64,000 nucleotides of DNA from an uncultured Sphingobacteriales bacterium (GTDB lineage Bacteria; Bacteroidota; Bacteroidia; CAILMK01; CAYYUA01), in assembly GCA_964561545.1 (NCBI GenBank), contig CAZLQF010000003.1, positions 74,775 through 138,774 on the forward strand, given 5' to 3'. A program made the translations under genes and the position numbers. Under the pieces are notes generated by a model. That model was not told the origin of the DNA, ran no database searches, and was given only the letters and a program-made list of their open reading frames with translations. The number at the start of each line of letters is the position of its first letter. The stretch's first letter is position 1. Shown one piece after another: positions 13,739-53,031 of the stretch.

Positions 13739-16700
13739 CTATTCGATACTAATTAACATTTGTTGTTCAGATTGTTCGTCAATCCATAGTTTAAGAATGA
13801 ATACACCAGAGGAATAACCATGCTTGGCGGGGTCGAACTCAATCTGATGTTTACCTGCCGCTTGCTCTTCATCTATTAGGGTTGATACGGTTCTACCTGT
13901 TTGATCCACTACTTGCATTTTAACTGTTTTAGCATTGGGAAGCTCGTAATCAATGTTAATGGCCTGTTTAAAAGGATTGGGATAAGTTGCTAAATCAATT
14001 GAATTAGCAAGCTGTTGATCAATACTTGTTGCAATATCTACCGTGTCTGTTGATTGACTTGAACAACCTGCATCAGTTTCAACACTGAGGGTTATTGGGT
14101 ATTGCCCGCTGTTATCATAAGTATGAACGGGATTGACCTCAAATGAAGATGATCCATCACCAAAATTCCATTCGTAAGATGCATAGGTATTGTTGGCTGT
14201 ATTCATCACTACCTGGCTACCATTTTTATCAATGCTGAAATTGCTATTGGGGGTTTCATTCACCGTTACCATTTTGGTAGCAGTATCCGTGCAATTGTTA
14301 TTTGATTCGGTTGTTACTAATGAAATATCCAAATCACCGGTATTATTAAATGTAACGTCAGGGTTTTCATCTGTGGAAGTTTGACCGTTATCGAAATCCC
14401 AATCATAGCTTAAACTTCCAGCGCCTCCTTGCGATGAATTGGTAAAGGTTACAGCCTCATCCGTACAAATTAATTGAGGTGTTTGGAAATTAGCACTCGG
14501 AGATTCTGTAATATTTAGGTTTTGGCTAATGGTATCAGCACAGCTAAACGTTGGGGATTTTGCGATGTATTGCACATTGTAATTGCCTGAACTTGTGAAT
14601 TCATGCTTGGGGTTGGGTTGGTTGCTAAAAGCTCCATCCCCAAAATCCCAGGTGTGAGCAAGGCTGTCTCCACTGTAGTTGACCTGGGTATTGAAATTGA
14701 TTAATTGATTGCTGCAATCTCCATCATTAGAAAGATTAACAATTTCCGGATCGGCATGTATGGTTAAACTTTGGGATTTAGAATCTGTACAATTCGTAGA
14801 ATCAGTAGTTGTTGTTAATGTTACTGTGTAATCATTAGCTGTGCTGTAAGTAATCGAAGTATCTTTAGCGTCAGCAGTCGTATTGCCTAAATCCCAGTTG
14901 TAATTCAAAGATTCGTTGCCTTGATACTGGCTATTGTCATTGAACTGAATTGTACTTCCCTGACAGGCATCATTGGGTGCGGTAAAGTTAGCACTTGGCT
15001 TTTTACCGACAAGAATAGACTTGGTAAGAGAATTTTGACAAGCTGATTGTGACGGAATAGCATTCAATTGTACTTGATATTCACCTGCTACAGCGTATGT
15101 ATTTGATGCATTGGGTTGGTTGTCTGTAGTACCATCACCAAAGGACCAGTTATAATTTACGGATCCCGATCCTGTAAATGAGGTTGCATTGTTAAATTGT
15201 ACCGGGTTACTTTCACAAATAGAAGTATTGCCAACAATAAAATCTACTTGTGGCGTAGCATCCACTGAAATCTGTTTGGTTTGAGTGGCTATACAGCCAC
15301 TATCAGTAGCAACGGATAATGCCACATTGAAATTACCTGACGAGGAATAAGCATAATTGGGATCCTTTACTACTGAAGCATCCCCATTACCAAAGTTCCA
15401 CTCATAATTGGGTGATAATCCTTGATTGGTTGTTTGGTCGATGAAGTTCAGGGTATCACCTTGACAATATTGACTGCCAAGGATTGTAAAATCAGTGTTG
15501 GGGGTAGGATCAACGCCTACGGTTTTAGTAATGCTGTTAGAACATCCTTTGTTCGATGTTGCTGTAAGGGTAACATCGCGATTTGTAGCTGTATTGTAGG
15601 TCTGTGTGCCGTTAATATCCGTTGATGTTTGGCCATTGCCAAAATTCCATTGATAACTCAGTGAGCCGGTAGATATGGAAGAATTATTATTGAATGTAAT
15701 GGATTGATTTTGACAAGTTGTATCAAAGGCAAAATCAACCTGTGGTTTGGGAGCTATTTGAACGTTCTTGGTAGCCGTGTCTGCGCCGCAGCCTTGTTTA
15801 GAAGTGAGTACCAATTCCACATCGTAATTGCCACTTTGCCCGTAGGTATGAACCGGGCTTCGATTAGAAGCAGTATTTCCATCCCCGAAATCCCAGCTTG
15901 AAGTGGACATTTGGCTGGATAAATTACTGTTGTTATTGAATTGAAGGTTAACCGGGCAACTGTCGGCAAGGGCAAAATTAGCCTGAGGGCCGGGTTCTAT
16001 GTATAAGTAGTTGGTAAAACTGGTATCACAAGCACTCAATAAATTGACTTTGACGGAGATTTCAAAAAGGTTGTTGCCTTCGCTTGGAGAAGCAACATAC
16101 ATCAGTTGCGCATCGGCATTGGTGGTAGCGGGCGTAAAATTGGTGTCCTGGGCACCGCTTCCTGCCATTGTTTCGAATTGGATTTCTGAAATCTCCCATT
16201 TATTTCCATATTCACTGTTTGAAAAATTGCCAGGAGCAGGGAATTTGTAAGTCATGGTATCGCCAACACAAGCCGAATCGGGGTTGGCCATGGTTTGATT
16301 GCCGCTCACACCATTAAATGGGCTGCCTTCCATAAAGCTTGTAGTAGCATCTCTGGAAATGGCGTTAGCACTTACACGAGAACTTGTACAAACTTCCGGA
16401 TAATTGAACTGTGGATTGGGTGCCCCTACATTGGGGTTCCCACAAGTAAAATTCGAAGCATCATTGTCATCGAGGCTTCCCGTTCTTATCACATTAGATC
16501 CGATATTGCAAGCATTGGTGCCGCCACCGCTCCATTGATTATTGAGGGAAATATTGAAACCATTGATGGTTGGATTAAAGTTTTGAAGATTAGATTGAGA
16601 CCAGCCCCAAGCAACAAAATCCACCACTTCGCCTTGGTCATCTATGATGATGGCCCAACCTGGTACATTGGGGTCCCATACAATATTAGACCCCCATGGA

Positions 16701-19126
16701 TTGGGCCCACCTGCATCAGTTCTGTACAACAATTGATCTTTTGAAATATTGCCAAGGTTCCATAAAGTTGGGTTGACTTGATTAATGTCCGTAGCACTGT
16801 TACTTACAGCGACCACCCAACCACTGGCGTCTACTGCATCGTCTGAGACATTTTGAATTTCTATTGAGTCATCTAAGCCCAATGCGTTCTCGGTGATCAA
16901 TAAAGTCTTTTTGGGGCTTGAAGCGGCTTCTACATAAAAGGTGGTATCTTGGTTAAAAGCACTGGTTGTATAAGTATTGCCGGAGTTAGCGATAAAGTTT
17001 CCTCCTGTTGCACTGTCATACCAATGATAGAAGGATGTGTTGGATGAAGTTGTGAATTTGGGTGCTTTACCTTTACAGAAGGTATCATTATTAACCGTAG
17101 GTACTTGGGGTGTAAAAGGAACAAAGATCCCTGTGGAAAAGGTGTCATTGCTGAGGTTATTGTCTTCTTGAAGGCTGGTCCAGGTTTTAAAATTATAGTT
17201 GCTACCACCTTGAGAAAGGTCAATAGAATTATTAAACGTATAATTGATGGTGTCTCCGGGACTAAAAGGCGAATTAAGCATGTAGGATTCACTGACTGAA
17301 GTATTGCTACCCAATTGATAACCCACCGGCACCATTGTATTAGCAGGTATGGTTAGGTTACCCTTGTTTTCAAAAACAACTTTCACAGATTCATTGCTCG
17401 TTAAACCGCAAGTTGATTCAGGCTTAAGCAATTGGCTGATGCCTACATCACCAATTTCAGTAGTAAAGCTATCAACCGCGCAATTAGTGGCTTTACCCAC
17501 ACTGTTGAAAGGCACTACATTCCAATAATAGGTGGTATTCAGGGATAAATTTGAATTTGTAAGTGAATATTGAAAAGTAGTAAATGTATCTACCAAAGCT
17601 GCTTGACTTTGATTCTGTACATTGGTGAAGTTGCTATCCAAATACAACAAAAAGCCGTTTGCACTTCCTCCTGATATACCTGTATTAGTAGACCAATTCA
17701 ATGTAGAATCGACAAGGACGCCATTTGCATCAGCTGGAGGATATGATTTTATAGCACACAATGGGGGGCTGGTAGATTTGTATTGAATCTCAACGGCAAA
17801 ACGGAAGGGATTTGCCGGTGCAAAATCAAACCAATTTGGACTTCCTGATGGTGAGGTGAAGAAATAAGCTCCTTGCCTTGGCGGATTTTCATTCTGAAAT
17901 TTAAAAGTAACATTATTGGTGCCAACTTGCCTAACGCCAACAAAGAAATCACCACTTACCTGAACTGCGGAATCTAATTGAATCAGGGCTTGCCCGGCTA
18001 CTGTTTGTAAAGTATCCGTTTCGTAAAGCAAGGCACCGGGTGTTGCTTGAGCAGTCGCATCCCAAACACCAATTTGATAATCAAGGCCAGCATTATCAAA
18101 ATTGACATTAACCTGAATGATACTGTCGGCCGTTGGAGTATTGAAATTTGCTACAAAGTCGCCAGTAGCACCATTAAATCCTACTCCTCCCGGGCTCAAA
18201 GGTTGAGCAGGATACACATAAGATTCATTGTTATTGGTTACCTCCTGAACCACTGAAATAGCGTTATTGGTATTGTTAGAATCGTTTGGTACTGAAACCG
18301 TAACGGTATCTGTGCCTAAATTCGTTGGTGTAAAACTGGGATTGGTAAAGGTTACTGTGAAAATATCTCCAGAATTAAAAGTAGGAATATTTACGGTGCT
18401 TGTAAAATTATTTGCCCCAGTTATGTCAAGAGTTACAGGCACATTGGATTGGGATACACCATTGTTCACAACCCTTGCCTGTACTTCATGATCATTGTTG
18501 ACTCTGATTTTACCAAGGGTATAGTTATTGGTAACAGCTAAATCAGGTTTTAAAGTATCGTAAAGAAAATCATCAATGAATACCTCAAATGCACCAACTT
18601 GTAAATGGCGAAGGGCTATGTGTTCATTGTTACCAATCAAACTTGTATTGGTAAGGGGAACCGTGAACTCCTGAAAGCTCCCGTTTGGCGGATTGACTGT
18701 ATCTATAGGGATATAGCCTGCTATATTTGAAGTATCGGGCATAACCCCAACTTCTATTAGTTCATCACCGCTTGCATCTTCATCACTGGCTTTAAAAGTG
18801 ACAGATTTACCACCATTAGGTAGATCCGTAAATTTAGGCGAGATCAAAAAGGTTTGGTTGGCATCATTCAACTCTATAAGGTTAGGTGTTGTTGGGGGTG
18901 CTATTCCGGCATCATTGGTATTTACGGTCCTCGTACCAGAAGTTTCTACACCTCCATTCTGAACTATGTTCCAGCATGGACTAAGCGAAGGAGCTGTTAC
19001 ACTGTCGAATCCATGGCTATAGGGATAAGTATTACCGGAACAAGTGGTTTGCGCTTCAAGATTGAAAGCTAATAAACTTGAAACCACAAAAATCACTAAC
19101 GCTTGGGTAAAATTTTTAAATTCCAT
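13739..19126 (-). CDS. giant secreted cell-surface protein with about 8 PKD repeats, a lamin-tail-like domain, and a T9SS type A C-terminal sorting domain
   Basis: 1795 aa with an N-terminal signal peptide. Repeated W[DN]FG[DN]G ... YxxSGxYxVxL units (PKD). An LLITEN...IEIQNVSD...VDASGW segment (lamin-tail-like). C-terminal ~80 aa (YPNPFKQAINIDYELP...GVFILKL) match the Por secretion sorting domain (type A CTD). Confidence 0.85.
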   Translation of the reverse strand: MEFKNFTQALVIFVVSSLLAFNLEAQTTCSGNTYPYSHGFDSVTAPSLSPCWNIVQNGGVETSGTRTVNTNDAGIAPPTTPNLIELNDANQTFLISPKFTDLPNGGKSVTFKASDEDASGDELIEVGVMPDTSNIAGYIPIDTVNPPNGSFQEFTVPLTNTSLIGNNEHIALRHLQVGAFEVFIDDFLYDTLKPDLAVTNNYTLGKIRVNNDHEVQARVVNNGVSQSNVPVTLDITGANNFTSTVNIPTFNSGDIFTVTFTNPSFTPTNLGTDTVTVSVPNDSNNTNNAISVVQEVTNNNESYVYPAQPLSPGGVGFNGATGDFVANFNTPTADSIIQVNVNFDNAGLDYQIGVWDATAQATPGALLYETDTLQTVAGQALIQLDSAVQVSGDFFVGVRQVGTNNVTFKFQNENPPRQGAYFFTSPSGSPNWFDFAPANPFRFAVEIQYKSTSPPLCAIKSYPPADANGVLVDSTLNWSTNTGISGGSANGFLLYLDSNFTNVQNQSQAALVDTFTTFQYSLTNSNLSLNTTYYWNVVPFNSVGKATNCAVDSFTTEIGDVGISQLLKPESTCGLTSNESVKVVFENKGNLTIPANTMVPVGYQLGSNTSVSESYMLNSPFSPGDTINYTFNNSIDLSQGGSNYNFKTWTSLQEDNNLSNDTFSTGIFVPFTPQVPTVNNDTFCKGKAPKFTTSSNTSFYHWYDSATGGNFIANSGNTYTTSAFNQDTTFYVEAASSPKKTLLITENALGLDDSIEIQNVSDDAVDASGWVVAVSNSATDINQVNPTLWNLGNISKDQLLYRTDAGGPNPWGSNIVWDPNVPGWAIIIDDQGEVVDFVAWGWSQSNLQNFNPTINGFNISLNNQWSGGGTNACNIGSNVIRTGSLDDNDASNFTCGNPNVGAPNPQFNYPEVCTSSRVSANAISRDATTSFMEGSPFNGVSGNQTMANPDSACVGDTMTYKFPAPGNFSNSEYGNKWEISEIQFETMAGSGAQDTNFTPATTNADAQLMYVASPSEGNNLFEISVKVNLLSACDTSFTNYLYIEPGPQANFALADSCPVNLQFNNNSNLSSQMSTSSWDFGDGNTASNRSPVHTYGQSGNYDVELVLTSKQGCGADTATKNVQIAPKPQVDFAFDTTCQNQSITFNNNSSISTGSLSYQWNFGNGQTSTDINGTQTYNTATNRDVTLTATSNKGCSNSITKTVGVDPTPNTDFTILGSQYCQGDTLNFIDQTTNQGLSPNYEWNFGNGDASVVKDPNYAYSSSGNFNVALSVATDSGCIATQTKQISVDATPQVDFIVGNTSICESNPVQFNNATSFTGSGSVNYNWSFGDGTTDNQPNASNTYAVAGEYQVQLNAIPSQSACQNSLTKSILVGKKPSANFTAPNDACQGSTIQFNDNSQYQGNESLNYNWDLGNTTADAKDTSITYSTANDYTVTLTTTTDSTNCTDSKSQSLTIHADPEIVNLSNDGDCSNQLINFNTQVNYSGDSLAHTWDFGDGAFSNQPNPKHEFTSSGNYNVQYIAKSPTFSCADTISQNLNITESPSANFQTPQLICTDEAVTFTNSSQGGAGSLSYDWDFDNGQTSTDENPDVTFNNTGDLDISLVTTESNNNCTDTATKMVTVNETPNSNFSIDKNGSQVVMNTANNTYASYEWNFGDGSSSFEVNPVHTYDNSGQYPITLSVETDAGCSSQSTDTVDIATSIDQQLANSIDLATYPNPFKQAINIDYELPNAKTVKMQVVDQTGRTVSTLIDEEQAAGKHQIEFDPAKHGYSSGVFILKLWIDEQSEQQMLISIE

Positions 19127-19279: not shown

Positions 19280-19669
19280 TTACTGAATAAAGCGAATGGT
19301 TAACGGATACCGGTAAGGGATGCCATCGTTGGCTTTGATGCAAGCTACGATCATGAATGCAAAATAAAGGATGGTTATAATACCTGTTAAAGGAAGGGTA
19401 AAAATCATAGCAAATGGGTGGGCCGGGAAAGCAACTGTTAATCCTAAGGCAACTATAACAATGACGTAAATAAATACACTGATCTGAAAATTAAGGGATT
19501 CTTTACCCTGATCATCTACCAAGGGATGTTCATCTTTTTTTACCATCCAGATGATGAGCGGGCCAATGAAGTTACCAAAAGGAACAATAAAGCCGGCAAA
19601 GCCCAATAGATGACATAACATGGCCAATGTATTAGCTTGTCGGTTGTTGTTGGTAATGTTTTGATCCAT
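19280..19669 (-). CDS. small 3-4 TM membrane protein (DUF4870-like)
   Basis: 129 aa, hydrophobic helices. The LCHLLGF...GPLIIWMVKKD pattern resembles DUF4870. Lies 195 bp downstream of dprE2-like on the same strand. Confidence 0.5.
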   Translation of the reverse strand: MDQNITNNNRQANTLAMLCHLLGFAGFIVPFGNFIGPLIIWMVKKDEHPLVDDQGKESLNFQISVFIYVIVIVALGLTVAFPAHPFAMIFTLPLTGIITILYFAFMIVACIKANDGIPYRYPLTIRFIQ

Positions 19670-19864: not shown

Positions 19865-20605
19865 TTATAATTTCATTTTTTTAAAGATGTTTTCCGGAAT
19901 CAATTTGATGATCAGCATGATGTAGCGCCAATACCATTTAGTATAAAGATGGTTTCGCTTTTTTTGTTGCGCTTTGTAAGTATCTTTGGCTACTTGTTCA
20001 GGGGTAGCTGTTATAACAGGTGGTAAATCTTTGCCCTCGGTCATTTTGGTTCTCACAAATCCTGGCTTAACCGTTAATACATGGACGCCTTTTTTAGCCA
20101 TTCGGTTTCTTAGGCCTGAAAGGTAGGCGGAAAAGCCTGCCTTAGAACTGCCGTAAAAATAATTACTCTGGCGTCCGCGATCACCTGCTACGGAGCTAAT
20201 ACCAATAATGAATCCGTCACCTTGCCTTTCGAGTTCTTTGGCAGCAAGGTTGAGGATGTTTACGCAAGCATTGTAGTTGGTTTCGATGATTTTACGAGCC
20301 TCCTTAGCATTTTTTTCTGCCTCTTCCTGATTTCCGAGATAGCCGATGGCACTTACAACTCCATAAGGTTTAGGATCAAGGTTGAGGTAAAAGTCAATAT
20401 GACTTTCATAATTAAGGCCATCAAATTCAACGGCCTGGGCCCTTATTTCATAACGGATTTCGAGGTCCTTCACTTCATGCTCCAATCTTGAAGCATTCCT
20501 TGCTGCTAAATACAGGTTGTAACCCTTTGATGCATAGAGCCGATAAATGGCTTGGGCAATGTCCGAGGTAGCGCCTAAAATCAAAATGTATTGTTCGTCA
20601 TTCAT
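19865..20605 (-). CDS. DprE2-like SDR (putative polyprenyl-phospho-2-keto-pentose 2'-reductase)
   Basis: 246 aa. N-terminal ILILGATSDIAQAI glycine motif. The SSVAGDRGRQSNYFYGSSKAG...VLTVKPGFVRTKM core and the C-terminal RYIMLIIKLIPENIFKK tail closely parallel M. tuberculosis DprE2 ([23 protein letters not shown]...VIRPGQVRTRM...RYVMMVLRHIPRSIFRK). Start overlaps the upstream gene stop by 4 bp. Confidence 0.8.
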   Translation of the reverse strand: MNDEQYILILGATSDIAQAIYRLYASKGYNLYLAARNASRLEHEVKDLEIRYEIRAQAVEFDGLNYESHIDFYLNLDPKPYGVVSAIGYLGNQEEAEKNAKEARKIIETNYNACVNILNLAAKELERQGDGFIIGISSVAGDRGRQSNYFYGSSKAGFSAYLSGLRNRMAKKGVHVLTVKPGFVRTKMTEGKDLPPVITATPEQVAKDTYKAQQKKRNHLYTKWYWRYIMLIIKLIPENIFKKMKL

Positions 20606-21915
20606 AAGCCGAGTCTTTCCGAGAGGGTTGAAGTAAATTTTCCATGGGGATCATATTGGCTTTTAATCTCCTTGAACCTGTTTAATTCAGGATAAGAGGC
20701 TGAAAACACGGATTCAGGCATTCGGGCATCTTTGGCGAGGTAGATCCTACCATCGTATTTAAGCACCAACTTGTCCAATTCCTTTAAAAAAGCAAGCACT
20801 TCATCATTGACCGGGAAATCCAAGGCCAAGGTATAACCTTCTGTTGGAAATGAAAGCAATCCGTCCTGCGGGCCGAACAATTTTAAAACCGTCAAAAAGG
20901 ACGCCAGCCCCTTCTTGACAATTTTTTCCAGAATCACCGGAATGCCTTCATAGCTTTCTTTAAGGGGCAGTACGAATTGATACTGGACAAAACCTCGCTT
21001 GCCATACATCCGGTTCCAGTGTTTGATCTTGTCCAGAGGATAAAAAAAGGGGTTTAGCGAGGTAAGAGTTGATTGATTATGAGCAGCTCGATGGTAATAA
21101 AGGAAATTAAAAGACCGGATGCTTAGGTCATTTAACACAAATGCCGGCAAGTAAAAAGGCATGTTGATGGACTTACCTTCAATGGGGGATTGAGTGCTGG
21201 AAAGAGGGCTAACCTCATCTTTTGTAGCATGTTCCCCAACTGAAAGGACGCTTCTCCCAAATTGCTTGCCTTTGGCAAGGCAATCCAGCCAGGCTACCGA
21301 ATAGGTGTAATCCTTGGTTTCATCAAATAGCTTGAAGATTTGGTCCAGGTTGTTGGCCTTGTAGGTGGTTGCTTTAATAAAAGGCGTTTCTACTGGTTTA
21401 AGTTGAAAAGTAGCTTCCAGGATTAATCCTGTTAGGCCCATTCCTCCACATGTGGCCTGGAATAATTGCTGATTATGCTCAGGACCACAGTTGACCAATG
21501 ATCCATCAGCCAAAAGAAGCTTAATATTCTGCACATGATCGCCAAAAGTTCCTTCTTTGTGATGGTTTTTTCCGTGAACATCCGAAGCAATGGCTCCGCC
21601 TATCGTAACGTATTTAGTACCTGGTGAAACCGGCAAAAACCAGCCTTTGGGTACCAATTGCTCAATAATTTCAAGAAGACTTAAACCTGCTTCACAGGTA
21701 AGGATGCCATTTTGTTGGTCAAATGCAATAAAACGTTGGTAATGAAGGGATGATAAAACATTGGCTTGAAGCGAGGCATCGCCATAGGAACGGCCAAGCC
21801 CCCTGGGAATTAAACAATCCAGTTGATTGATTTGATGCCTGGCTTCATCCTCAAACGAAAAATCATTTACCTCAGCCTCAATGGTTGGAAAGTTGCCCCA
21901 ATTGGCGATTTGCAT
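20602..21915 (-). CDS. DprE1-like FAD-dependent oxidase (putative polyprenyl-phospho-ribose 2'-oxidase)
   Basis: 437 aa. PRGLGRSYGDASLQ, GTKYVTIGGAIASDVHGKNHHKEGTFGDHV, GGMGLTGLILEATFQL, GFVQYQFVLP, FLTVLKLFGPQDGLLSFP and RIYLAKDARM match the M. tuberculosis DprE1 blocks (GLGRSYGD, GGAIACDIHGKNHH, GGNGLTGII, LQYQFVIP, FLNVFKLFGP...LSFP, RLYTAKDSR) almost position for position. Confidence 0.85.
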   Translation of the reverse strand: MQIANWGNFPTIEAEVNDFSFEDEARHQINQLDCLIPRGLGRSYGDASLQANVLSSLHYQRFIAFDQQNGILTCEAGLSLLEIIEQLVPKGWFLPVSPGTKYVTIGGAIASDVHGKNHHKEGTFGDHVQNIKLLLADGSLVNCGPEHNQQLFQATCGGMGLTGLILEATFQLKPVETPFIKATTYKANNLDQIFKLFDETKDYTYSVAWLDCLAKGKQFGRSVLSVGEHATKDEVSPLSSTQSPIEGKSINMPFYLPAFVLNDLSIRSFNFLYYHRAAHNQSTLTSLNPFFYPLDKIKHWNRMYGKRGFVQYQFVLPLKESYEGIPVILEKIVKKGLASFLTVLKLFGPQDGLLSFPTEGYTLALDFPVNDEVLAFLKELDKLVLKYDGRIYLAKDARMPESVFSASYPELNRFKEIKSQYDPHGKFTSTLSERLGL

Positions 21916-22123
21916 TTAAAAATGGTTTGATTATGAAAGAAGAACCCATGCTCCCCAGCATTTATTCATCCAAGTCACTATTGGTTTTCATATTCTTTCA
22001 TCACAGCAAAATTGTTTTAGGACTTATATGTTCTTGGTAGTAATAAAATAAGTTGCTAAGAGGCTTGGCTGGCATCTCAATGTTTGCCTTTTCCATCATT
22101 TTCTCAATACTAAGAACTAACTA

Positions 22124-23068
22124 CTATTCCCTTAAGTCAGCCGTTTTCTTATTTTCCAGGTACCAATCGATGGTTTCCTTAAGGCCTTCTTCAAAGGTAT
22201 ATTCAGGTTGCCAATTGAACACTTCGTTCATGCGGCCAACATCCAAAACCTTTCGATGAACGCCATTGGGCATGGACGTATCCCATTCCACTTCGCCTTG
22301 GAAGCGGGTAAATTGCTGGATGGTATCTGCCAATTGTTTGATGCTGATGCCTTCACCGGTTCCGATGTTGATAGGCTTGAGGCCATGCTCAAGTTCAATA
22401 GCCCTTACAATAACTTCAGCGGCATCTTTTACGTACAGGAATTCCCGAATTGGGGAGCCATCGCCCCATAAGGTCACTTTTTCTTTTGCATCGGTAAATT
22501 TCTTGATGAGGGCAGAAAGTACATGAGAGCGATATTCGGTAAACACATCATGAGGCCCGAACAGGTTGGTAAGGATCAAATGATTGGATTCAATGCCGTA
22601 TTGCTTGTAGTATGCATTTTGCGCTACTTGTTGGATTTTTTTACTAATGCCGTATGATTCTACTGTATCATGCAAAGGGCCATCCCAAAAATTATCTTCA
22701 TTGAGATCGCCGGTCAAGTGGCCAGGATAAGCACAGGCGGAGCCAATTGGTAAAATTTTCTTAACCCCCCAGTTACCGGCTGCTTCAAAAGCATTCACCG
22801 CCATTTTGGTATTTTTCTGAAATATGGTGGCTGGTTCTGCTTTATTGATACCAATTCCTCCGTAATAAGCAGCAGAATGGATCAATACGTCAAGGGCTCC
22901 GTGGTTTTGGACCAGTTCCCGCATGTAATCATCAACCCCTTCATTGGTTTCCAGGTTGAAATCCTTGCTTCGGGGTGCAAATACTTGATACCCTTTCGTT
23001 TCTGCTTTTTCTACGATATGGCGGCCTAAAAATCCATTGCCGCCTGTTACTAATATTTTTTTAGGCAT
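22124..23068 (-). CDS. GDP-L-fucose synthase family NAD(P)-dependent epimerase/reductase (Fcl-like)
   Basis: 314 aa. ILVTGGNGFLG, NLFGPHDVF, LWGDGSPIREFLYVKD and MPNGVHRKVLDVGRM parallel E. coli Fcl (NLYGPHDNF, VWGSGTPMREFLHVDD, KPDGTPRKLLDVTRL). Confidence 0.7.
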   Translation of the reverse strand: MPKKILVTGGNGFLGRHIVEKAETKGYQVFAPRSKDFNLETNEGVDDYMRELVQNHGALDVLIHSAAYYGGIGINKAEPATIFQKNTKMAVNAFEAAGNWGVKKILPIGSACAYPGHLTGDLNEDNFWDGPLHDTVESYGISKKIQQVAQNAYYKQYGIESNHLILTNLFGPHDVFTEYRSHVLSALIKKFTDAKEKVTLWGDGSPIREFLYVKDAAEVIVRAIELEHGLKPINIGTGEGISIKQLADTIQQFTRFQGEVEWDTSMPNGVHRKVLDVGRMNEVFNWQPEYTFEEGLKETIDWYLENKKTADLRE

Positions 23069-23981
23069 TTTTCCACTCGCTTTTGATGTAAATATGTCTT
23101 AAAATCTTGATCAATTCCTGGATGCCTTCATCCATGTCTATTTTCGTTTGATAGCCCAGTTTTTTGATCTTTTCATAGCTGACCTCGTAATCCCGTTTGT
23201 CCTTGTCTTCTCCAATATCGGCTTCATGGAGGTAATAATCGATGTAGTCATTGATCTTTTGAGCCACCTCTCGCTTGGTATAGTTCATGGCTTCGTTGCC
23301 TACGTTGTAGGCGCCTCCTTTCATTTTTTCCAGGTTGTCAATGGTAAAGGGATAAACATTGGCTGCATCCCATACATGTAAAAATGTTCTCCGGAAGTGG
23401 CCTTCATAGAGAATGATCTGCCGATTGTGCAATGCCTGGTAAACGAAATCATTCACCATCAAATCTAAGCGAAGTCTTGGAGAGATGCCAAATACAGTGG
23501 CAAAACGAAGCCCAACACCTCCATAATCGGTTATCATATTTTCTGCTTCCCATTTGGTAGAGCCGTATAAGGTCAATGGATCAATGGGTGTTTCTTCCGT
23601 ACAAATACCCTCTACTTTACCATAGGTAGAACCGGTAGAGGCAAAAATAATGTCGCGGCCATCCAATAAATCGATCAAGTTTTTGGTGCCATCCACGTTG
23701 ATGGTTCTTGCCCGGTCAGGGTCGGAAGCACAAGCTGGGTAGCCAACAATGGCGGATAAGTGGATCACCATATCGCAACCCTTAATGGCCTCTTTTAATT
23801 GATTTTTATCCCGGACATCTCCGGTTATAATGGATAGGTTGGGATCAGTGGCAAAGTGAAGGATGGGTTTAACCCCCCACATGAAAGTATCAAATAAAAC
23901 TACTTCATATTTTCGTTCAAGGAGCATGGGGATCAGGGTGGATCCAATGTAGCCCGCCCCTCCGGTTACCAATATTTTCAT
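23061..23981 (-). CDS. NAD-dependent epimerase/dehydratase family protein
   Basis: 306 aa. ILVTGGAGYIGS Rossmann motif and YGSTK (YxxxK) catalytic motif. Overlaps the downstream Fcl-like gene by 8 bp, suggesting an operon. Not a canonical Gmd. Confidence 0.7.
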   Translation of the reverse strand: MKILVTGGAGYIGSTLIPMLLERKYEVVLFDTFMWGVKPILHFATDPNLSIITGDVRDKNQLKEAIKGCDMVIHLSAIVGYPACASDPDRARTINVDGTKNLIDLLDGRDIIFASTGSTYGKVEGICTEETPIDPLTLYGSTKWEAENMITDYGGVGLRFATVFGISPRLRLDLMVNDFVYQALHNRQIILYEGHFRRTFLHVWDAANVYPFTIDNLEKMKGGAYNVGNEAMNYTKREVAQKINDYIDYYLHEADIGEDKDKRDYEVSYEKIKKLGYQTKIDMDEGIQELIKILRHIYIKSEWKNA

Positions 23982-24541
23982 TGTTGATTCAAGGTTTTGT
24001 TATTGATTGATTTGGTTGTACAAATAGGCCTCGAAATTACAATTGGTTGGGGTAATTTCAAAAATTTTGCATTGAGGCGATGATTTTCTAAAGGGTTAAC
24101 CCTGCTAATTTAAAAAAGTTGTATCCTGGCCTAATTTAAAGTTGTTATTGAGCGCTTTTTTAACTGATTGATTAACATTTGATAATGGTATTCATAATTG
24201 ATAAAGCGGAAAGTGGGGGTATTTTGTTGTTGCTTAGGCTTGCTTTTTTTCGGATAGCTCATTGATATAATCCGGTTTAGGGCATTGTATGGGAGGTCCT
24301 AAATGAGTATTGAGTTATCCATTGAATCCGGTCAAACAATTGTTGGCAGTATTGTGGTTAGAATTTTGGATCTTGTTACTGTAGCTGGCATTGTTCACTA
24401 TAATTGATAGGGCAATTGGTTTACTTTGGGGCATTTTTAAAAAGCGCCTATTCGGAGAAGGACCAATAGAATTATTTCGGCTGCTTACCTGAAATAACCA
24501 CGTCCACTAAATAAAACTCGGTAAAGTAGTACCTATTGGGG

Positions 24542-25210
24542 TTATTGTAAATTATTTAAACGGTATTTCAGGTTTTCAACGATTTTGGATTGCTCCTTAA
24601 GGCTTTTACTTTCATCTTTTCGCTGTTGCTCAATTTGCTTAAGCTTTTTTTCCGAGTTTTGAATGGTAGTAGTACATTCCTCAATGGTTTCCTTATGTGC
24701 TTGGGCATTGTTCTTGAGTTCATTCATTGTTTTCTCATGTTCTTCTAAATTACTTTGGGCATCTTCAAGTATTGCTTTGGTCGCCTCCTTTGCTTTGGCT
24801 AATGCAAAATCATGAATGAGCTTTTTGGCTGCTTTGTAATTAGGATGGTCAAATGCTACATATGCATTTTCAAAAGTTTGAAAGAAAACGGTCATAGAAA
24901 CGCCTTGGTCTTGAGACGCTAACTTGGTATAGATCCATAAAGGTTCCTTGCTTATCGAGGGAATTTGTACTTCCTTCCCTGTTACTTGCTTTCTGGACTT
25001 ATTAACGTCATCGTTGTCAAAGTCTTTTAAACGCCTTTTCCATTGCCGTTTAATAGGCCTACGGTCTGCCTCAGGGATTGCTACTTTAATGCCCGGCTGG
25101 GTTCCTTTTTCCATTAATTCCCTAACGAGGGTTACTTCTATTGCTTGGCTGCTAACCAAAGATGGAAAAATAATCAACAAGGGAAGGATTGATAAAATTA
25201 TATATCGCAT
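24542..25210 (-). CDS. secreted hypothetical protein with C-terminal coiled coil
   Basis: Signal peptide. Lys/Glu-rich heptad-like C-terminal half. Confidence 0.45.
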   Translation of the reverse strand: MRYIILSILPLLIIFPSLVSSQAIEVTLVRELMEKGTQPGIKVAIPEADRRPIKRQWKRRLKDFDNDDVNKSRKQVTGKEVQIPSISKEPLWIYTKLASQDQGVSMTVFFQTFENAYVAFDHPNYKAAKKLIHDFALAKAKEATKAILEDAQSNLEEHEKTMNELKNNAQAHKETIEECTTTIQNSEKKLKQIEQQRKDESKSLKEQSKIVENLKYRLNNLQ

Positions 25211-25570
25211 GATTTTAAGATTGAAAACATAAAATTAAAATAAAAAAGTACATTGAAAACCTTTGTTGAGGTGCTTTGGGTGAATTTGAAAAGAAGCGGG
25301 ATGTCTTTATGAAGTCTATTTCTTTATGGAACTATGTTCTTTTTTAATGATTTTACTTTCCCCTTCATCCCTTTAAAAAAGGGAGTTTTTTACAGGATTG
25401 AATGGGTTGGTAACAATTTCTCTACTTGCATTTAAGGATGCAGGAACTGAATGCCGTAACCATTCTCCGCAAAAAGCGGGTCCGGTTCAGTTAGGAAAGG
25501 GCCGTAATCCTGAATTGGTGATTTTAGGATTAAAAAACGTGTTTATCCATTCTTCAATAGCCTAAAAATA

Positions 25571-27054: not shown

Positions 27055-29199
27055 TCAAGTGTTTTGAAAACTTGCTTTTAATTGTTGGCCTAAATTCCAG
27101 TTATAATCTATTAACACCAGGAAAACGAAAATCATAAATGGAATAGTATTGAGGGTATAAATAACACCGTAAAAATCAAAATATTGATTGACCAAATGCG
27201 TAATAATAGAAATTAGGCACAAGGCAATCCCGATCCAGTATTTTTTATGAAATAAGAAGGCGTAAACAAGGAAAAAACTGTAATAGTAACAAGTGAGCTC
27301 AAATGCTATTGGAATTAAGCCCGTGCCTAAAACAGCGGCTTCCCATGGTTTTATACGGGGTAACACCCTAATTAGTAAAGCAAGATACAATAAAATAGCT
27401 GCCCAATAAATGGATTTGAGGTCTTTGAAATTTTCCAGCCGTTGCTCTTTCCATTTTGCAAAAGGATCTGGCTTTGCTGGTTCCCTTGTTTTTTCTGCTC
27501 TATCTTGATGGCGGTATCCAAGTATGGTTTTTAAGCCCATGTGGTTGCTTAAGGGAGTTTCCAGGTGTTTTTGGCTGTTTGCGATAAAACCCTTCCAATT
27601 TTTAAACCCTTCGTTGACCCACAATGACAGAGGAATTAAAACTATGAAAGCTGCTAACAATCCTTTAAACACTTGCTGATATTGATTTTGCAGGGACCAT
27701 TGCTTTTGGTAAAAGGTGTCTGAAATGCCTTTAAGTGCTACTCCCACAAGGGTGGCTCCCGGAAAAATTCTTAAAAAAGCAGCATAAAGCAACATAAACC
27801 CACCTCCAGCATTTTTTTGCTTTTTAAGCAAACATATTCCTATTACAAGAAATACCAGCCAATTTTGTCTTAAAAATGAGCCACCGGTCCAATAAAAGTT
27901 AGCTACTAAATTGGTGCCCCAGAAAATTAAAGCCAAGCTAAATACTTCCCAGCCAAATGCCCAAGCTACAAGGATCCACATGATAATGATCAGTACGGGA
28001 TCGATTAAGGAGAGCCAGAAAATTTGGGTTTTATTGATGGATGCAGTATTAGTCAAAGTTTTGCCAGCTATGGTCCAAATAGGTGTAGCATTAAACCCAT
28101 GATCCTGATGCATTTTTTTCCACCGGTCTTCACTCATTTGATCCCTGAACCATAAAGCATCGGATTTGAATGCTTCCCACCTCTTGCCCAATTGCTCTTT
28201 AATGGCTGTCGAATCATCCAATACTTGGGTGGCAGGAATCATGCTATTATCAGATAAATCTCTGATGTGCCTCGATCTAACGCTTTTTTTATAGCCATGT
28301 TCCCAATCTGCTATAACCGAAGCATCGTAAAGGGATACATAGCCAAGATCGGGTTGGTATTTGGATCCCATGTAGTAATGAAAAAATTCCCAATAGTGGT
28401 AAAAATTGCCGTTATGAAATGTAGTCAAATTAAACCAGGCAAAACATGAGACAGTACCCAGGATGATAAACTCTGTTCCTAAATTACGGGATGCTTTGAT
28501 AGATTGCTTTTTTGATGTGAACCAATTCCAAACAAGCCAAATTAATCCGATTGTTGCCAATCCAGTCTTGACAAACCACAATCTTAAATCTTCACCTGCC
28601 TCTACCTCTTGGTTGGTGTCATTTGGAGTAGGCTCTGAACGGTCTGCGGTGTCAGGTTTCTGGCAGTAAGCTTTTAGTTCGGAGATGGAATAATTGCCGT
28701 CTCCCTTTATAGGGGTAATTAGTAAATAGCGAATGGGGGTTGTTTGATTGAGGTTGATATTTCGGGTATGAAGTCCGTATTGATTCTCTTGCTTAGGAAT
28801 TTTGGCATGTCCTTTCCAGTTATTGGTATCGGTGGCAAACTGAAATTGGTACACATCATCCGCATCGGCCTGGAGCTTAAAAGCACTAATTGGATATACT
28901 TGATGAAAGTCTATGAAAATAGCAGATTTCTTGTTTTTTAATTGGACTGCTGCGGGTAATATCCATCTTGATCCTTCGAAAGTTTGATGACCATCAACAA
29001 TTTTGGTCAATTGGCCATCGGTATTAGTCCCTTTCACGGTAGCATTTTGCGCAAGGTTTTGATGGGAACACTCAAACGTGTCTTCAATTATATCATTTGT
29101 TGTACCTTGATCAGCCACAACAGGTTTACCCACTAAAAAGCAACAAGAGAAAAGAAGAAGGTAGGTTATAATATTGGCATCCAATTGCTTCAAAACCAA
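27055..29199 (-). CDS. large polytopic membrane protein with N-terminal discoidin (F5/8 type C)-like domain
   Basis: 714 aa. Signal/anchor, a ~190 aa beta-sandwich-like N-terminal domain (GSRWI...VYPISAFKLQ...YSISELKAY), then at least 10 predicted TM helices with a large first extracytoplasmic loop containing YHYWEFFHYY. No catalytic family assigned. Confidence 0.6.
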   Translation of the reverse strand: MVLKQLDANIITYLLLFSCCFLVGKPVVADQGTTNDIIEDTFECSHQNLAQNATVKGTNTDGQLTKIVDGHQTFEGSRWILPAAVQLKNKKSAIFIDFHQVYPISAFKLQADADDVYQFQFATDTNNWKGHAKIPKQENQYGLHTRNINLNQTTPIRYLLITPIKGDGNYSISELKAYCQKPDTADRSEPTPNDTNQEVEAGEDLRLWFVKTGLATIGLIWLVWNWFTSKKQSIKASRNLGTEFIILGTVSCFAWFNLTTFHNGNFYHYWEFFHYYMGSKYQPDLGYVSLYDASVIADWEHGYKKSVRSRHIRDLSDNSMIPATQVLDDSTAIKEQLGKRWEAFKSDALWFRDQMSEDRWKKMHQDHGFNATPIWTIAGKTLTNTASINKTQIFWLSLIDPVLIIIMWILVAWAFGWEVFSLALIFWGTNLVANFYWTGGSFLRQNWLVFLVIGICLLKKQKNAGGGFMLLYAAFLRIFPGATLVGVALKGISDTFYQKQWSLQNQYQQVFKGLLAAFIVLIPLSLWVNEGFKNWKGFIANSQKHLETPLSNHMGLKTILGYRHQDRAEKTREPAKPDPFAKWKEQRLENFKDLKSIYWAAILLYLALLIRVLPRIKPWEAAVLGTGLIPIAFELTCYYYSFFLVYAFLFHKKYWIGIALCLISIITHLVNQYFDFYGVIYTLNTIPFMIFVFLVLIDYNWNLGQQLKASFQNT

Positions 29200-33071: not shown

Positions 33072-34538
33072 ATGAAAAAGTACTTATTTGAGATAATTGT
33101 GTTTTTTAGCGGTGCTATTGTTATGATTTTAGAAGTGGTGGGGTCAAGGGTTTTAGCACCTTATTTAGGTACTTCAATATTCATTTGGACCAGTTTAATT
33201 GGTATTATCCTGGCAAGTTTAAGCCTGGGTTACTATTTAGGCGGTAGGCTTTCAGACCGATCTCCATCATTGGATGTACTTGCTACGATCCTGTTTTTTG
33301 CTGCCATTCTTGTTGGGATCACTACATACGTTAAAGCACCTTTTCTTAATTTTCTATTGTCCCAAACCTCTGATCTCAAATTAGGATCGGTTATAGCCAC
33401 GATCGTATTATTTGCATTACCCAGTACGCTGTTGGGGATGGTTTCGCCTTATTGCATTAAGTTAAGGCTCAAAAGCCTTAATACAAGCGGAAGCACTGTG
33501 GGTAATTTGTATGCCATATCAACTATTGGAAGTATTGCGGGAACCTTTTCTGCCGGCTTTTATTTGATCCCATGGCTTGGGACTACTACCATTTTGTTTC
33601 TTTTAGCCATCACGTTAATGATCTTGTCTATCCTTGCCTATGCCAAAAATCAATTTGTTTTGAGAACAGCCATTCTTTTTGGCCTAATCGTATTGGCCTA
33701 TACCTATGAGAGCCATTCAAGTATTATAGAGGTTGATACGAAATACAACAAGGTTTGGATTTATTCTCAAAAGCCCCATGATACAAGCCGCGAAAAGAAA
33801 ATAATGCAAGTAAATAGACAAAAAGCCTCAACTGTTTATACAGATACCAAAAGTACGGCCAGTGCATATGTCAAATATTTTGATCTGGCTAAATTTTTTA
33901 AACAAGATGTAAATAAAGCGCTAATAATAGGAGGGGCCGGTTACGAATACCCCCGCCATTTTTTAACCACTTTTCCTGATGCAACTATAGATGTTGTAGA
34001 AATCGATCCTAAGCTAACAGACCTGGCCAGGAGGCATTTTTATTTAAAAGACAATCCACGCTTGTCTATTCACCACATGGACGGACGTATCTTTTTAAAC
34101 CAAATGCAGCAGCAATATGATGTGATCTATGGCAACGCATTTAATTCAGCTGCTTCAGTTCCTTACCATTTAACAACCCTTGAAGCGGCCCGCCAGATGA
34201 AAGGGGGCTTAAAGGAAGATGGGGCAGCCTTTATCAATGTTGTTTCTTCATTAAAAGGAGTAAAAAGTAAGTTTTTAAGGGCTGAATATAAAACCTTTAA
34301 AGCTGTTTTCAACCATATTTTTTTATTTCCGGTCCAATACCCAGATGATCCTAAAAAAATTCAAAATATTATTATGGTTGCATTAAAAGGTAAAGCACCT
34401 GAATCCCTAAGCAGTAAAAATCCAAAATTTCAAAAATACCTTGATCATTATTGGAATGAACCCATTGAAACTGATTTGCCTGTTTTAACCGATAACCATG
34501 CCCCTGTTGATTATTACCTTGATGATATAACTGAGTAA
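33072..34538 (+). CDS. fused membrane domain / spermidine synthase-like (polyamine aminopropyltransferase family) protein
   Basis: About 6 N-terminal TM helices, then IIGGAGYEYPRHF...DVVEIDPKLTDLARRHF...DVIYGNAF class I MTase/spermidine synthase fold motifs. Confidence 0.7.
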   Translation: MKKYLFEIIVFFSGAIVMILEVVGSRVLAPYLGTSIFIWTSLIGIILASLSLGYYLGGRLSDRSPSLDVLATILFFAAILVGITTYVKAPFLNFLLSQTSDLKLGSVIATIVLFALPSTLLGMVSPYCIKLRLKSLNTSGSTVGNLYAISTIGSIAGTFSAGFYLIPWLGTTTILFLLAITLMILSILAYAKNQFVLRTAILFGLIVLAYTYESHSSIIEVDTKYNKVWIYSQKPHDTSREKKIMQVNRQKASTVYTDTKSTASAYVKYFDLAKFFKQDVNKALIIGGAGYEYPRHFLTTFPDATIDVVEIDPKLTDLARRHFYLKDNPRLSIHHMDGRIFLNQMQQQYDVIYGNAFNSAASVPYHLTTLEAARQMKGGLKEDGAAFINVVSSLKGVKSKFLRAEYKTFKAVFNHIFLFPVQYPDDPKKIQNIIMVALKGKAPESLSSKNPKFQKYLDHYWNEPIETDLPVLTDNHAPVDYYLDDITE

Positions 34539-42615: not shown

Positions 42616-43308
42616 ATGAATATCAAGTTTATAGGTACAGGTGGTGCGTTTGATTATGAATATGGCAATTCATCAGCCATTCTTGATTTTAAAGGCCATA
42701 CCTATTTGATAGATTGTGGCCAGGATATCTACCCAAGGTTACGGTCCAAAGATTTCATAGATCCGATTGATCATGTTTTGATCACGCATTTTCATGCAGA
42801 TCATGTAGGCAGCTTGTCAACCTTTATACTTCATCATCACTTCTTTAGTAAGGGCAAACAACTTAAGTTGCTATATCCAGACGCAGACTTTAAGGATCAG
42901 CTTTATGAATACTTGAAATTTTCACTTCAAACCCCAGAGAAATTCATCGTTTTCATTCCTGTTAAAAATCACCAGGGCGTTAATTTTGTCGATACTTTCG
43001 GGCTTCATGTGCCAGGAATGCAAACTTATGCGTATTACTTCCAAGATGATGAGGAAGCACTTGTTTACTCTGGTGATTTAGGAGATTGTGATTACTTGTT
43101 CGACAATTTACCAGAGTTTGATAAACCTAAGAAGCGCGTATTTCACGACATCAATTTTGATCCCCCGGTCGGCCCCCACACTTTTTATGAGGACCTCATC
43201 CCTTACCAAGAGGATTTCGAGATTTATGGATATCATTGTGATCCTTCTGAAAATGTAAAAGAAAATCCAGTTCCCCTGGTGTATGACCACCCTGAGCTGC
43301 AATTATAA
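42616..43308 (+). CDS. MBL-fold metallo-hydrolase
   Basis: HFHADHVG (HxHxDH) motif, with downstream His/Asp ligands. Confidence 0.7.
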   Translation: MNIKFIGTGGAFDYEYGNSSAILDFKGHTYLIDCGQDIYPRLRSKDFIDPIDHVLITHFHADHVGSLSTFILHHHFFSKGKQLKLLYPDADFKDQLYEYLKFSLQTPEKFIVFIPVKNHQGVNFVDTFGLHVPGMQTYAYYFQDDEEALVYSGDLGDCDYLFDNLPEFDKPKKRVFHDINFDPPVGPHTFYEDLIPYQEDFEIYGYHCDPSENVKENPVPLVYDHPELQL

Positions 43309-51913: not shown

Positions 51914-52972
51914 TTGTTAACCCTTTCGAACAAAAATTCAAACACCATGGAAACACCACAGGGTACAACAGAAGTAGCCCAAGAACAAGTAGACATCAAG
52001 CAGATCAACGAAAGGATCCACCAGGAAAGCGCATTTGTTGAGCTGCTTTACAATGAGATCGGTAAGGAAATTGTAGGCCAGAAATACATGCTCGAACGAT
52101 TATTGATCGGGCTTTTGTCCAGCGGCCATATACTGCTTGAAGGCGTTCCGGGGCTTGCCAAAACATTGGCCATTAAATCACTGGCTTCCGCCATTAATGC
52201 AAACTTTAGTCGGATCCAGTTTACGCCTGATCTTCTTCCGGCCGATTTGCTGGGGACGATGATCTACAATCAATCTAAAAACGAGTTTGTTATCCGTAAA
52301 GGACCCATTTTTGCCAATTTCATTCTGGCCGATGAGATCAACCGTGCACCAGCTAAAGTACAAAGTGCCTTGCTGCAGGCCATGCAAGAACGGGAAGTTT
52401 CCATTGGGGATGAAACCTTTAAACTTGAGGAGCCCTTTCTTGTGTTGGCTACCCAAAATCCCATCGAACAGGAAGGTACCTATCCATTACCCGAGGCGCA
52501 GGTGGACCGTTTCATGCTGAAAGTGGTTATTGATTACCCGGAGAAAGAAGAAGAAAGGCTCATCATGCGTCAGAATATCAATCAAACCGTCCAGACGATT
52601 AATGCCGCCATTGATACGGCTCAAATTACAAGGGCTCGAGATGCGGTCCGGGAAGTTTATATGGATGAAAAGATTGAGCAATACATCCTGGACATTGTTT
52701 TTGCTACACGCCAACCTGAGCAATACAAGCTTGACAATTTGGCCCCGCTTGTAAGCTTTGGTGCTTCGCCAAGGGCGTCCATCAACATTGGATTGGCATC
52801 AAGGGCTTATGCATTTATTAAACGAAGGGGCTATGTGATTCCTGAGGATGTAAGGGCAGTATGCCATGATGTGATGCGTCACCGTATTGGCGTATCCTAC
52901 GAAGCAGAAGCCGAGAATTATACAACCGAAAACCTGATCTCGGAAATCCTGAACAATATTGAAGTACCCTAA
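51914..52972 (+). CDS. MoxR family AAA+ ATPase
   Basis: LLEGVPGLAKT Walker A and ILADEINRA Walker B/AAA_3 motifs. Confidence 0.85.
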   Translation: MLTLSNKNSNTMETPQGTTEVAQEQVDIKQINERIHQESAFVELLYNEIGKEIVGQKYMLERLLIGLLSSGHILLEGVPGLAKTLAIKSLASAINANFSRIQFTPDLLPADLLGTMIYNQSKNEFVIRKGPIFANFILADEINRAPAKVQSALLQAMQEREVSIGDETFKLEEPFLVLATQNPIEQEGTYPLPEAQVDRFMLKVVIDYPEKEEERLIMRQNINQTVQTINAAIDTAQITRARDAVREVYMDEKIEQYILDIVFATRQPEQYKLDNLAPLVSFGASPRASINIGLASRAYAFIKRRGYVIPEDVRAVCHDVMRHRIGVSYEAEAENYTTENLISEILNNIEVP

Positions 52973-53031
52973 ACTTGATTGCTGTTTAAAACAAGGAGCA
53001 ACAAGGAACTTTCACCGAACCAACAATTCCA

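Follow-up and report, generated by a model that had tools for sequence, protein, structure and literature searches.

DprE1 and DprE2 of mycobacteria make the lipid-linked donor of D-arabinofuranose (D-Araf). A Gram-negative counterpart has been described in Pseudomonas aeruginosa Pa5196/PA7, where the genes PsPA7_6245-6249 (DprE1 is 6248 and DprE2 is 6249) serve the D-Araf glycosylation of type IV pilin; the P. aeruginosa DprE1 is cytoplasmic and was shown experimentally to be required for this modification. In the rhizobia Azorhizobium caulinodans and Rhizobium sp. IRBG74, the noeC(N)HOP operon serves Nod-factor D-arabinosylation. Three-component pentofuranose systems consist of PPPRS, a flippase and a GT-C glycosyltransferase, with optional epimerases (Kelly et al. 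2024, PMC11127046). In these systems undecaprenyl-phospho-ribofuranose (undP-Ribf) is made from phosphoribosyl pyrophosphate (PRPP) and epimerized in the cytoplasm, by DprE1/DprE2 homologues in the case of arabinofuranose (Araf) glycans, before a GT-C enzyme uses the product; documented examples come from Citrobacter, Stenotrophomonas, Rathayibacter and Devosia, with none from Bacteroidota, and the Araf-containing glycans with DprE1/DprE2 homologues are those of Stenotrophomonas (S. maltophilia), Rathayibacter and Devosia (PMC11127046). Here we describe a pair of genes for a 437-aa flavin adenine dinucleotide (FAD)-dependent oxidase and a 246-aa short-chain dehydrogenase/reductase (SDR) in a 64-kb stretch of DNA (hereafter the window) from an uncultured Sphingobacteriales bacterium (contig CAZLQF010000003.1). 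By analogy with the described systems, we consider it likely that this pair is a DprE1/DprE2-type two-enzyme epimerase, the product of which would be polyprenyl-phospho-D-arabinofuranose, the lipid-linked D-Araf donor.

Homology and functional residues of the oxidase and the reductase

The stop codon of the oxidase gene and the start codon of the SDR gene share the sequence ATGA (TCAT on the plus strand, 20602-20605), an overlap that indicates translational coupling of the two genes. The original prediction had described two coupled open reading frames (ORFs) with such a 4-bp overlap, and both are present on the minus strand with the boundaries it gave (Table 1). Each of the DprE1 and DprE2 motifs that it quoted was likewise recovered in the translations, namely GLGRSYGD, GGAIASDVHGKNHH, GGMGLTG, QYQFVLP, LKLFGPQDGLLSFP and RIYLAKD in the oxidase, and GATSDIA, YGSSKAG, PGFVRTKM and RYIMLIIKLIPENIFKK in the SDR.

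Against the NCBIfam DprE1 equivalog model (NF053785; cut-off 500), the oxidase scored 438.8 bits over profile positions 5-449 of 449, which is 370 bits ahead of the next-best NCBIfam family, sugar-1,4-lactone oxidase (67.8 bits). The SDR scored 194 bits against the DprE2 equivalog (NF053786; cut-off 250), and its top NCBIfam model was PRK07102 (NF005489), a generic 'SDR family oxidoreductase' model (335.7 bits, above the cut-off of 267). Searching the PDB with phmmer returned Mycobacterium smegmatis and M. tuberculosis DprE1 as the top matches of the oxidase (E=5e-86 to 6e-82), with the first non-DprE match at 3e-11 and xylitol oxidase at 5e-07, and DprE2 chain 21gq_C as the top match of the SDR (E=3e-33; next SDR, 2e-14). 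An AlphaFold2 (AF2) model of the oxidase (predicted local distance difference test score 80.5; predicted template-modelling score 0.85) had DprE1 structures as all of its top 49 PDB fold matches (TM 0.81-0.86), and in this fold search DprE1 reached ~1e-38 compared with 7e-23 for alditol oxidase (16% identity). Judged from sequence and modelled fold, the oxidase and the SDR are genuinely homologous to DprE1 and DprE2, as had been proposed, and the oxidase-then-reductase gene order of M. tuberculosis is borne out as well. They are only moderately similar to the mycobacterial enzymes: BLASTP identity to the M. tuberculosis proteins, the sequences of which were transcribed from the PDB-search alignments, was 36.4% over 409 aa for the oxidase and 32.8% over 247 aa for the SDR, and these values, together with scores below the equivalog cut-offs, do not bear out the description of a high-identity pair aligning almost residue for residue. 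The experimentally validated P. aeruginosa DprE1 is itself only 33% identical to the M. tuberculosis enzyme, and the window pair resembles the P. aeruginosa proteins in being Gram-negative, putatively cytoplasmic and about as distant from the M. tuberculosis pair; homologues from other Pseudomonas species (loci L064 and L071) share 49-50% identity with the window protein. A hydropathy scan found no signal peptide or transmembrane (TM) helix in either the oxidase or the SDR, in agreement with the cytoplasmic location of the P. aeruginosa DprE1. The predicted roles are those of a polyprenyl-phospho-beta-D-ribofuranose 2'-oxidase for the first protein and a polyprenyl-phospho-2-keto-erythro-pentofuranose 2-reductase for the second.

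These comparisons also bear on the idea that an unrelated VAO-family oxidase of the alditol or gulonolactone type lies next to a generic SDR by chance. Pfam alone would allow it, giving only the generic FAD_binding_4/ALO and adh_short domains, as would the NCBI-style annotation 'FAD-binding oxidoreductase', and VAO-family alditol and sugar-1,4-lactone oxidases such as the S. coelicolor alditol oxidase (2vfs) share the two-domain FAD_binding_4 and ALO-type architecture. Those enzymes, however, are only 16% identical, score far more weakly in the profile, PDB and fold searches given above and have no obligatory SDR partner, whereas an SDR partner with a DprE2-specific C-terminus is found in >90% of the loci of the family. 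Instead of falling among unrelated FAD-oxidase and SDR clades, the best matches were DprE1 and DprE2 by wide margins, and chance adjacency is effectively refuted.

Active-site residues of the oxidase were compared in an alignment with M. tuberculosis DprE1 and 84 relatives. Ten window residues (Y44, H114, K116, W209, Q311, Q313, K345, D366, Y392 and K395) are the same as their M. tuberculosis equivalents (Y60, H132, K134, W230, Q334, Q336, K367, D389, Y415 and K418, respectively), and all ten positions are invariant or nearly so in the family (85 sequences). The probed residues are identical to those of M. tuberculosis throughout save at Cys387, Asn385, Ser228 and Tyr314; the last three are Thr, Val and Phe in the window oxidase, and the Cys387 equivalent is Ala364, with Ala at this position in 82 of the 85 family members. 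Cys387 is the covalent benzothiazinone site and determines drug sensitivity rather than catalysis. The original prediction had linked the pair to benzothiazinone drugs and asked whether this cysteine is retained; it is replaced by Ala364, and the link therefore does not transfer. Given the near-universal Ala, covalent DprE1 inhibitors of the benzothiazinone type should spare the enzymes of this family.

The SDR contains the tetrad N110/S138/Y151/K155 and the glycine motif G11-A-T-S-D-I-A17, and its C-terminal RYIM..IPENIFKK signature (RYIMLIIKLIPENIFKK) aligns with RYVMMVLRHIPRSIFRK of M. tuberculosis DprE2. Within this R-Y-x-M...I-P-x-x-I-F-K/R-K segment, M, P and F are >=96% conserved among 75 relatives; both the N-S-Y-K tetrad and the C-terminal signature are common to the window SDR, M. 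tuberculosis DprE2 and the 75 family members. The segment (RYxM..IPxxIFKK) is taken to set DprE2 apart from generic SDRs, and it may have a role in membrane association. Compared with M. tuberculosis DprE1 (Rv3790) and DprE2 (Rv3791), the window pair thus has the same gene order, fold, catalytic residues, SDR tetrad and C-terminal segment; it differs in its identity of 36%/33%, in the four substitutions listed above, in having no neighbouring Rv3789-type GtrA, DPPRS, phosphatase or Emb/Aft transferases, and probably in using undecaprenyl instead of decaprenyl as the lipid.

Distribution of the family and its UbiA-linked cassette

Searching 5.8 billion proteins revealed at least 8,000 related proteins, each scored protein having E <= 1e-10. 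The top matches were 53-59% identical, with one more at 94%, and came from Chitinophagaceae, Fulvivirga, Flexithrix, Chondrinema, Parafilimonas and Ignavibacteria; many relatives bear the JGI/IMG name 'decaprenylphospho-beta-D-ribofuranose 2-oxidase', and their NCBI-style name is the generic one quoted above. A scan of GTDB with one genome per species gave at least 594 loci in more than ten phyla (best identity among the matches listed, 54%), including Bacteroidota, Chlorobiota/Ignavibacteria, Kiritimatiellia, Verrucomicrobiota, Anaerolineae, Campylobacterales, Nitrospirae, Planctomycetota, Cyanobacteria, Desulfobacterales, Pseudomonas, Vibrio and others, and the closest relatives in a metagenome scan were 54-56% identical. 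With 54% as its best identity, the GTDB set does not include the window genome, and the exact protein was matched only on a 3.7-kb Logan contig. The window pair thus belongs, as an ordinary if divergent member, to a large, widespread and database-annotated enzyme family. With thousands of proteins, hundreds of GTDB loci and the IMG labels already in place, the proposed rarity outside the Corynebacterineae is not borne out by the sequence data. The accompanying claim that such systems are at best sparsely documented there stands in part: they are published for Pseudomonas, rhizobia, Stenotrophomonas and Rathayibacter, whereas none was found for Bacteroidota. Our literature search returned no papers on DprE1 with Bacteroidota or Bacteroidetes, and no D-Araf glycoconjugate in Bacteroidota is described in the literature searched; the phylum is thus an experimental blank, although databases annotate thousands of such genes.

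The gene context was determined from six-frame ORFs of 80 of the genome loci and 80 metagenome loci using a seed-protein search. A DprE2-like SDR gene directly follows the oxidase gene at 66 of 70 informative genome loci and 53 of 58 metagenome loci, and a UbiA gene lies within 2.5 kb of the pair at 55 of 74 and 30 of 51 loci, respectively. The cassette UbiA exceeded the cut-off of the NCBIfam decaprenyl-phosphate phosphoribosyltransferase equivalog (243.2 versus 234), and its best PDB match was DPPRS (8j8j; E=4e-41). Many of the cassettes are flanked by a divergent ~570-aa membrane protein or by PMT_2-type GT-C proteins, and one flanking membrane protein matched the N-terminus of AftB-type beta-(1->2)-arabinofuranosyltransferase (E=8e-13). 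Relatives of the window pair thereby resemble the three-component systems in carrying PPPRS, DprE1 and DprE2, often with a GT-C gene nearby. This UbiA and GT-C context strongly supports, at the level of the family, the synthesis and use of a polyprenyl-phospho-D-arabinofuranose donor. No literature on the UbiA-DprE1-DprE2 cassette was found.

In its typical layout, a gene for a ~570-aa GT-C-like protein is divergent from that of a DPPRS-type UbiA (295 aa), which is followed by the DprE1-like and DprE2-like genes. We observed the cassette at L002 (7397-12073), L006 (5772-14982) and most of L007-L057, from Chitinophagaceae, Cytophagales and other groups. The Chondrinema litorale cassette is located on a 74.7-kb Rep3 replicon (CP111066.1), which also contains several genes for PMT_2-type or unassigned large membrane proteins and two acyltransferase_3 genes.

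The Bacteroidota origin of the window is supported by its own genes. Two cargo proteins of the type IX secretion system (T9SS; Por_Secre_tail and CHU_C domains) are encoded, and the named homologues of its KorA (2-oxoglutarate:ferredoxin oxidoreductase alpha subunit) all belong to Bacteroidota (Bacteroidia, Chitinophagales, Flavobacteriales and Longitalea). KorA identities were 61-65% for the best named matches and 72-74% for contigs of metagenome-assembled genomes (MAGs); these low values, together with the T9SS domains and the KorA homologues, point to a poorly sampled lineage of the phylum.

Proposed function of the window pair and its pathway partners

A neighbour-joining (NJ) tree places the window protein together with its 94% and 59% identical relatives and with Ignavibacteria/Chlorobiota loci, and no member of this clade has an adjacent UbiA gene. 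Other unlinked clades, those of Roseivirgaceae and Cyclobacteriaceae, still contain a cassette-type GT-C gene within 10 kb of the pair, so that lost UbiA adjacency need not mean a lost pathway. At two Ignavibacteria/Chlorobiota loci of the window clade the pair borders DegT/Wzz/Wzy/Wzx polysaccharide genes. In 59 UbiA-linked homologues, 137 alignment columns are >=90% conserved; the window clade has the same residue in 126 of these columns and conservative substitutions in the other 11. At this level there is no sign of a change in function relative to the UbiA-linked homologues.

At the two Ignavibacteria/Chlorobiota MAG loci (L004, 10001-21335; L010, 9989-14487) the unlinked pair lies directly before genes for a DegT aminotransferase and Wzz. 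Wzy, Wzx and GT2 are encoded at L004 too, where a gene for PRPP synthetase lies ~9.6 kb downstream of the oxidase gene.

Comparison with a 94-95% identical metagenomic relative gave ratios of nonsynonymous to synonymous substitution rates (dN/dS) of 0.19 for the oxidase and 0.09 for the SDR (dS ~0.15-0.19), which place both genes under purifying selection. The base composition at the pair was 0.43 compared with 0.40 for the window, and no composition-based signal of horizontal transfer was found around it. Such values would be hard to reconcile with the pair being an evolutionary leftover, either horizontally acquired or deprived of its partners, that feeds no glycan pathway. That view draws on the isolation of the pair from pathway partners, on its position nearest to Ignavibacteria/Chlorobiota homologues in a Bacteroidota genome, and on the lack of a GTDB species homologue with more than 54% identity among the matches listed; given that both ORFs are intact, their catalytic residues conserved, their dN/dS low and their base composition normal, we regard it as very unlikely.

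For a functional pair, the family cassettes provide the best functional reading, namely the lipid-linked D-Araf synthesis of the original prediction. In this pathway the cytoplasmic 437-aa flavoenzyme would oxidize the 2'-OH of polyprenyl-phospho-beta-D-ribofuranose, and the resulting 2'-keto intermediate would be reduced from the opposite face by the NAD(P)H-dependent 246-aa SDR to give the arabino configuration. The lipid carrier in Bacteroidota would presumably be undecaprenyl and not decaprenyl. After flipping of the lipid-linked D-Araf, a GT-C enzyme at the outer face of the inner membrane would use it to arabinosylate a surface glycan or glycoprotein. We infer the substrate, product and acceptor of the window pair from the described systems. 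The location of the pair downstream of a GDP-sugar 4-dehydrogenase/fucose-synthase-like module fits a small locus for cell-surface-glycan precursors.

Several observations weigh against this assignment for the window pair itself. The window was scanned with Pfam and NCBIfam models on ~47 ORFs, a hydropathy scan and custom profile hidden Markov models (HMMs) built from relatives, and no UbiA-type polyprenyl-phosphate phosphoribosyltransferase (PPPRS, Rv3806c-like), 5'-phosphatase, flippase of a known type or GT-C was found within its 64 kb; the best window E-values were 0.37 for the HMM from 101 related UbiA proteins and 0.15 for that from 36 related GT-C proteins. Neither the oxidase nor the SDR reaches its NCBIfam equivalog cut-off, no UbiA gene is linked to the pair in the closest relatives (exact-match look-ups; 94% and 59% identity), and the NJ tree that defines the unlinked clade is without support values. 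Furthermore, the literature search found no biochemical or sugar-composition reports for any Bacteroidota member. Pfam and NCBIfam also gave no match to PAP2, HAD, GtrA or MATE in the window. If the pair does make a D-Araf donor, PPPRS and the transferase must consequently be encoded outside the window. Two membrane proteins in the window were considered as GT-C candidates, the 714-aa protein with an F5/8-type-C domain and seven TM helices and a 488-aa spermidine-synthase-like protein, and both were rejected as they gave no GT-C signal.

The same gap separates the window pair from the other described systems. The P. aeruginosa cluster includes DPPRS, a phosphatase and a GtrA-like protein besides the pair, and D-Araf reaches pilin via TfpW; no counterpart of this acceptor was identified for the window pair. 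The three-component systems possess all three core components, whereas the window has the epimerase pair only. The rhizobial noeC(N)HOP operon, likened here to the window pair by description, is another Gram-negative use of orthologues of the mycobacterial decaprenyl-phospho-arabinose synthesis enzymes to provide a lipid-linked D-Araf donor; it differs in that the genes form a dedicated operon, which includes a transferase gene (NoeP), and in that the acceptor is a lipo-chitooligosaccharide.

Upstream of the pair lie two further genes for sugar-nucleotide enzymes. The best PDB match of the 314-aa protein was GDP-L-fucose synthase (E=1e-52), and that of the 306-aa protein was 6vo6, a 'putative sugar-nucleotide epimerase/dehydratase' (E=3e-78), which we take to be Campylobacter jejuni Cj1427. 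Cj1427 is a GDP-heptose C4 dehydrogenase (PMC10680097). The two genes look like an independent GDP-sugar oxidation/reduction module, and the arrangement at 22124-23981 suggests that an unusual hexose or heptose is formed by oxidation and reduction of a GDP-sugar at C4. Both are kept in the 94% identical relative, where the 314-aa gene adjoins the pair. They are linked to the pair at none of the 80 genome loci, and at one of the 80 metagenome loci (L110) an Epi314-like ORF is present ~3 kb upstream of the pair. A role of the two proteins as ORF13-like undP-Ribf C3 epimerases was rejected as the main explanation, since their best matches are GDP-sugar enzymes, and it is weakened further by this scarcity of linkage.

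In an alternative for this UbiA-unlinked clade, the pair would perform the same chemistry on a different substrate, such as another ribofuranosyl or related 2'-hydroxyl compound (on another lipid carrier, or a nucleotide- or phospho-sugar), perhaps together with the GDP-sugar enzymes. The retention of the Cj1427-like and fucose-synthase-like genes in the 94% identical relative is consistent with it, as are the lack of PPPRS and GT-C genes in the window and beside the two closest relatives, the sub-threshold equivalog scores of both proteins, and the clustering of the window with other unlinked loci in the NJ tree. However, the conserved columns shared with UbiA-linked homologues include the probed active-site residues, the C-terminal DprE2 segment shared with M. 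tuberculosis is kept, a UbiA gene can sit elsewhere in the genome as the GT-C-retaining Roseivirgaceae and Cyclobacteriaceae loci illustrate, and the SDR neighbours are scarcely ever linked to the pair across the sampled loci. We therefore consider a different substrate unlikely. An extension of this idea, which we find distinctly improbable, is that the pair is uncoupled from the PRPP/UbiA route and either works with the Cj1427-like and fucose-synthase-like enzymes on a substrate other than polyprenyl-phospho-ribose or adds a further epimerization, thus giving an undescribed lipid- or nucleotide-linked sugar such as a lyxofuranose-type donor; according to Kelly et al. (2024, PMC11127046), no glycan solved so far contains lyxofuranose. 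Synthesis of a lipid-linked D-Araf donor with partners encoded elsewhere remains our preferred explanation.

Genomic neighbourhood and significance of the cassette

The pair is part of a minus-strand run that encodes, in order, the 714-aa membrane protein, a beta-lactamase-fold protein, a 222-aa secreted protein, the 306-aa and 314-aa proteins, the pair, a DUF4870 protein and a 1795-aa protein (Table 1). The spacer upstream of the pair may possibly hold its own promoter. In this spacer, a sigma-70 scan detected sites no more frequently than in shuffled sequence, no exact Bacteroidota-type TAnnTTTG was present upstream of the pair, and neither a promoter nor a terminator could be assigned to the pair from the scans.

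Table 1. Coordinates of the gene pair and of neighbouring features in the 64-kb window
Feature	Coordinates	Strand	Details
DprE1-like FAD-dependent oxidase	20602-21915	minus	437 aa, ATG start; Pfam FAD_binding_4 and ALO
DprE2-like classical SDR	19865-20605	minus	246 aa, ATG start; Pfam adh_short
ATGA stop/start overlap of the oxidase and SDR genes	20602-20605	minus	read from sequence
Intergenic spacer upstream of the pair	21916-22123	minus	208 bp
GDP-L-fucose-synthase-like extended SDR	22124-23068	minus	314 aa; NCBIfam 233 bits (below the cut-off of 500)
NAD-dependent sugar-nucleotide dehydrogenase/epimerase	23061-23981	minus	306 aa; overlaps the 314-aa gene by 8 bp
DUF4870/MamF-MmsF-type membrane protein	19280-19669	minus	129 aa; Pfam DUF4870 1e-38; ~4 TM helices
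714-aa protein	27055-29199	minus	extracytoplasmic N-terminal region; weak F5/8-type-C match; 7 C-terminal TM helices
PKD-repeat giant protein	13739-19126	minus	1795 aa; T9SS C-terminal sorting domain
PKD-repeat giant protein	34774-39744	plus	1656 aa; T9SS C-terminal sorting domain

The DUF4870 gene lies 195 bp downstream of the pair and is kept in the 94% identical relative (dN/dS 0.47), and it is found beside the pair at none of 160 other loci; its four-TM product is without homology to known flippases. The gene of the 714-aa protein is likewise kept upstream of the locus in that relative. This protein matched no Pfam or NCBIfam family, and its weak F5/8-type-C match is to a carbohydrate-binding-like domain. 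The T9SS domains of the two PKD-repeat giant proteins are of type A (Por_Secre_tail) in one and type B (CHU_C) in the other, and both proteins are likely to be secreted or located at the cell surface.

Other features of the window were noted in passing. A 1.16-kb segment (24181-25340) containing a 222-aa ORF with a signal peptide and coiled coil (24542-25210) is missing from L087, a metagenomic contig that is 92-94% identical and otherwise collinear, and thus represents an indel between close relatives. On the plus strand, 33072-34538 encodes the 488-aa protein, in which five N-terminal TM helices are fused to the spermidine-synthase-like domain; 42616-43308 encodes a metallo-beta-lactamase-fold protein that matches the anti-Pycsar Apyc1 Pfam family at 48.2 bits, just below the cut-off of 50; and 51914-54870 encodes a MoxR AAA ATPase, a DUF58/vWA protein and an unassigned membrane protein in a row, in the layout of a Bat/aerotolerance-like operon.

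The window pair is unusual only in that no pathway genes are linked to it and that a GDP-sugar module lies next to it. More valuable than this pair alone is the UbiA(DPPRS)-DprE1-DprE2 cassette, which is common in Chitinophagaceae, Cytophagales and many non-actinobacterial phyla. Provided that the cassettes are active, soil and aquatic bacteria would carry D-arabinofuranose glycans much more widely than the few known cases indicate, and this could explain the D-arabinan-degrading enzymes found outside actinobacteria and their predators (PMC10115798).

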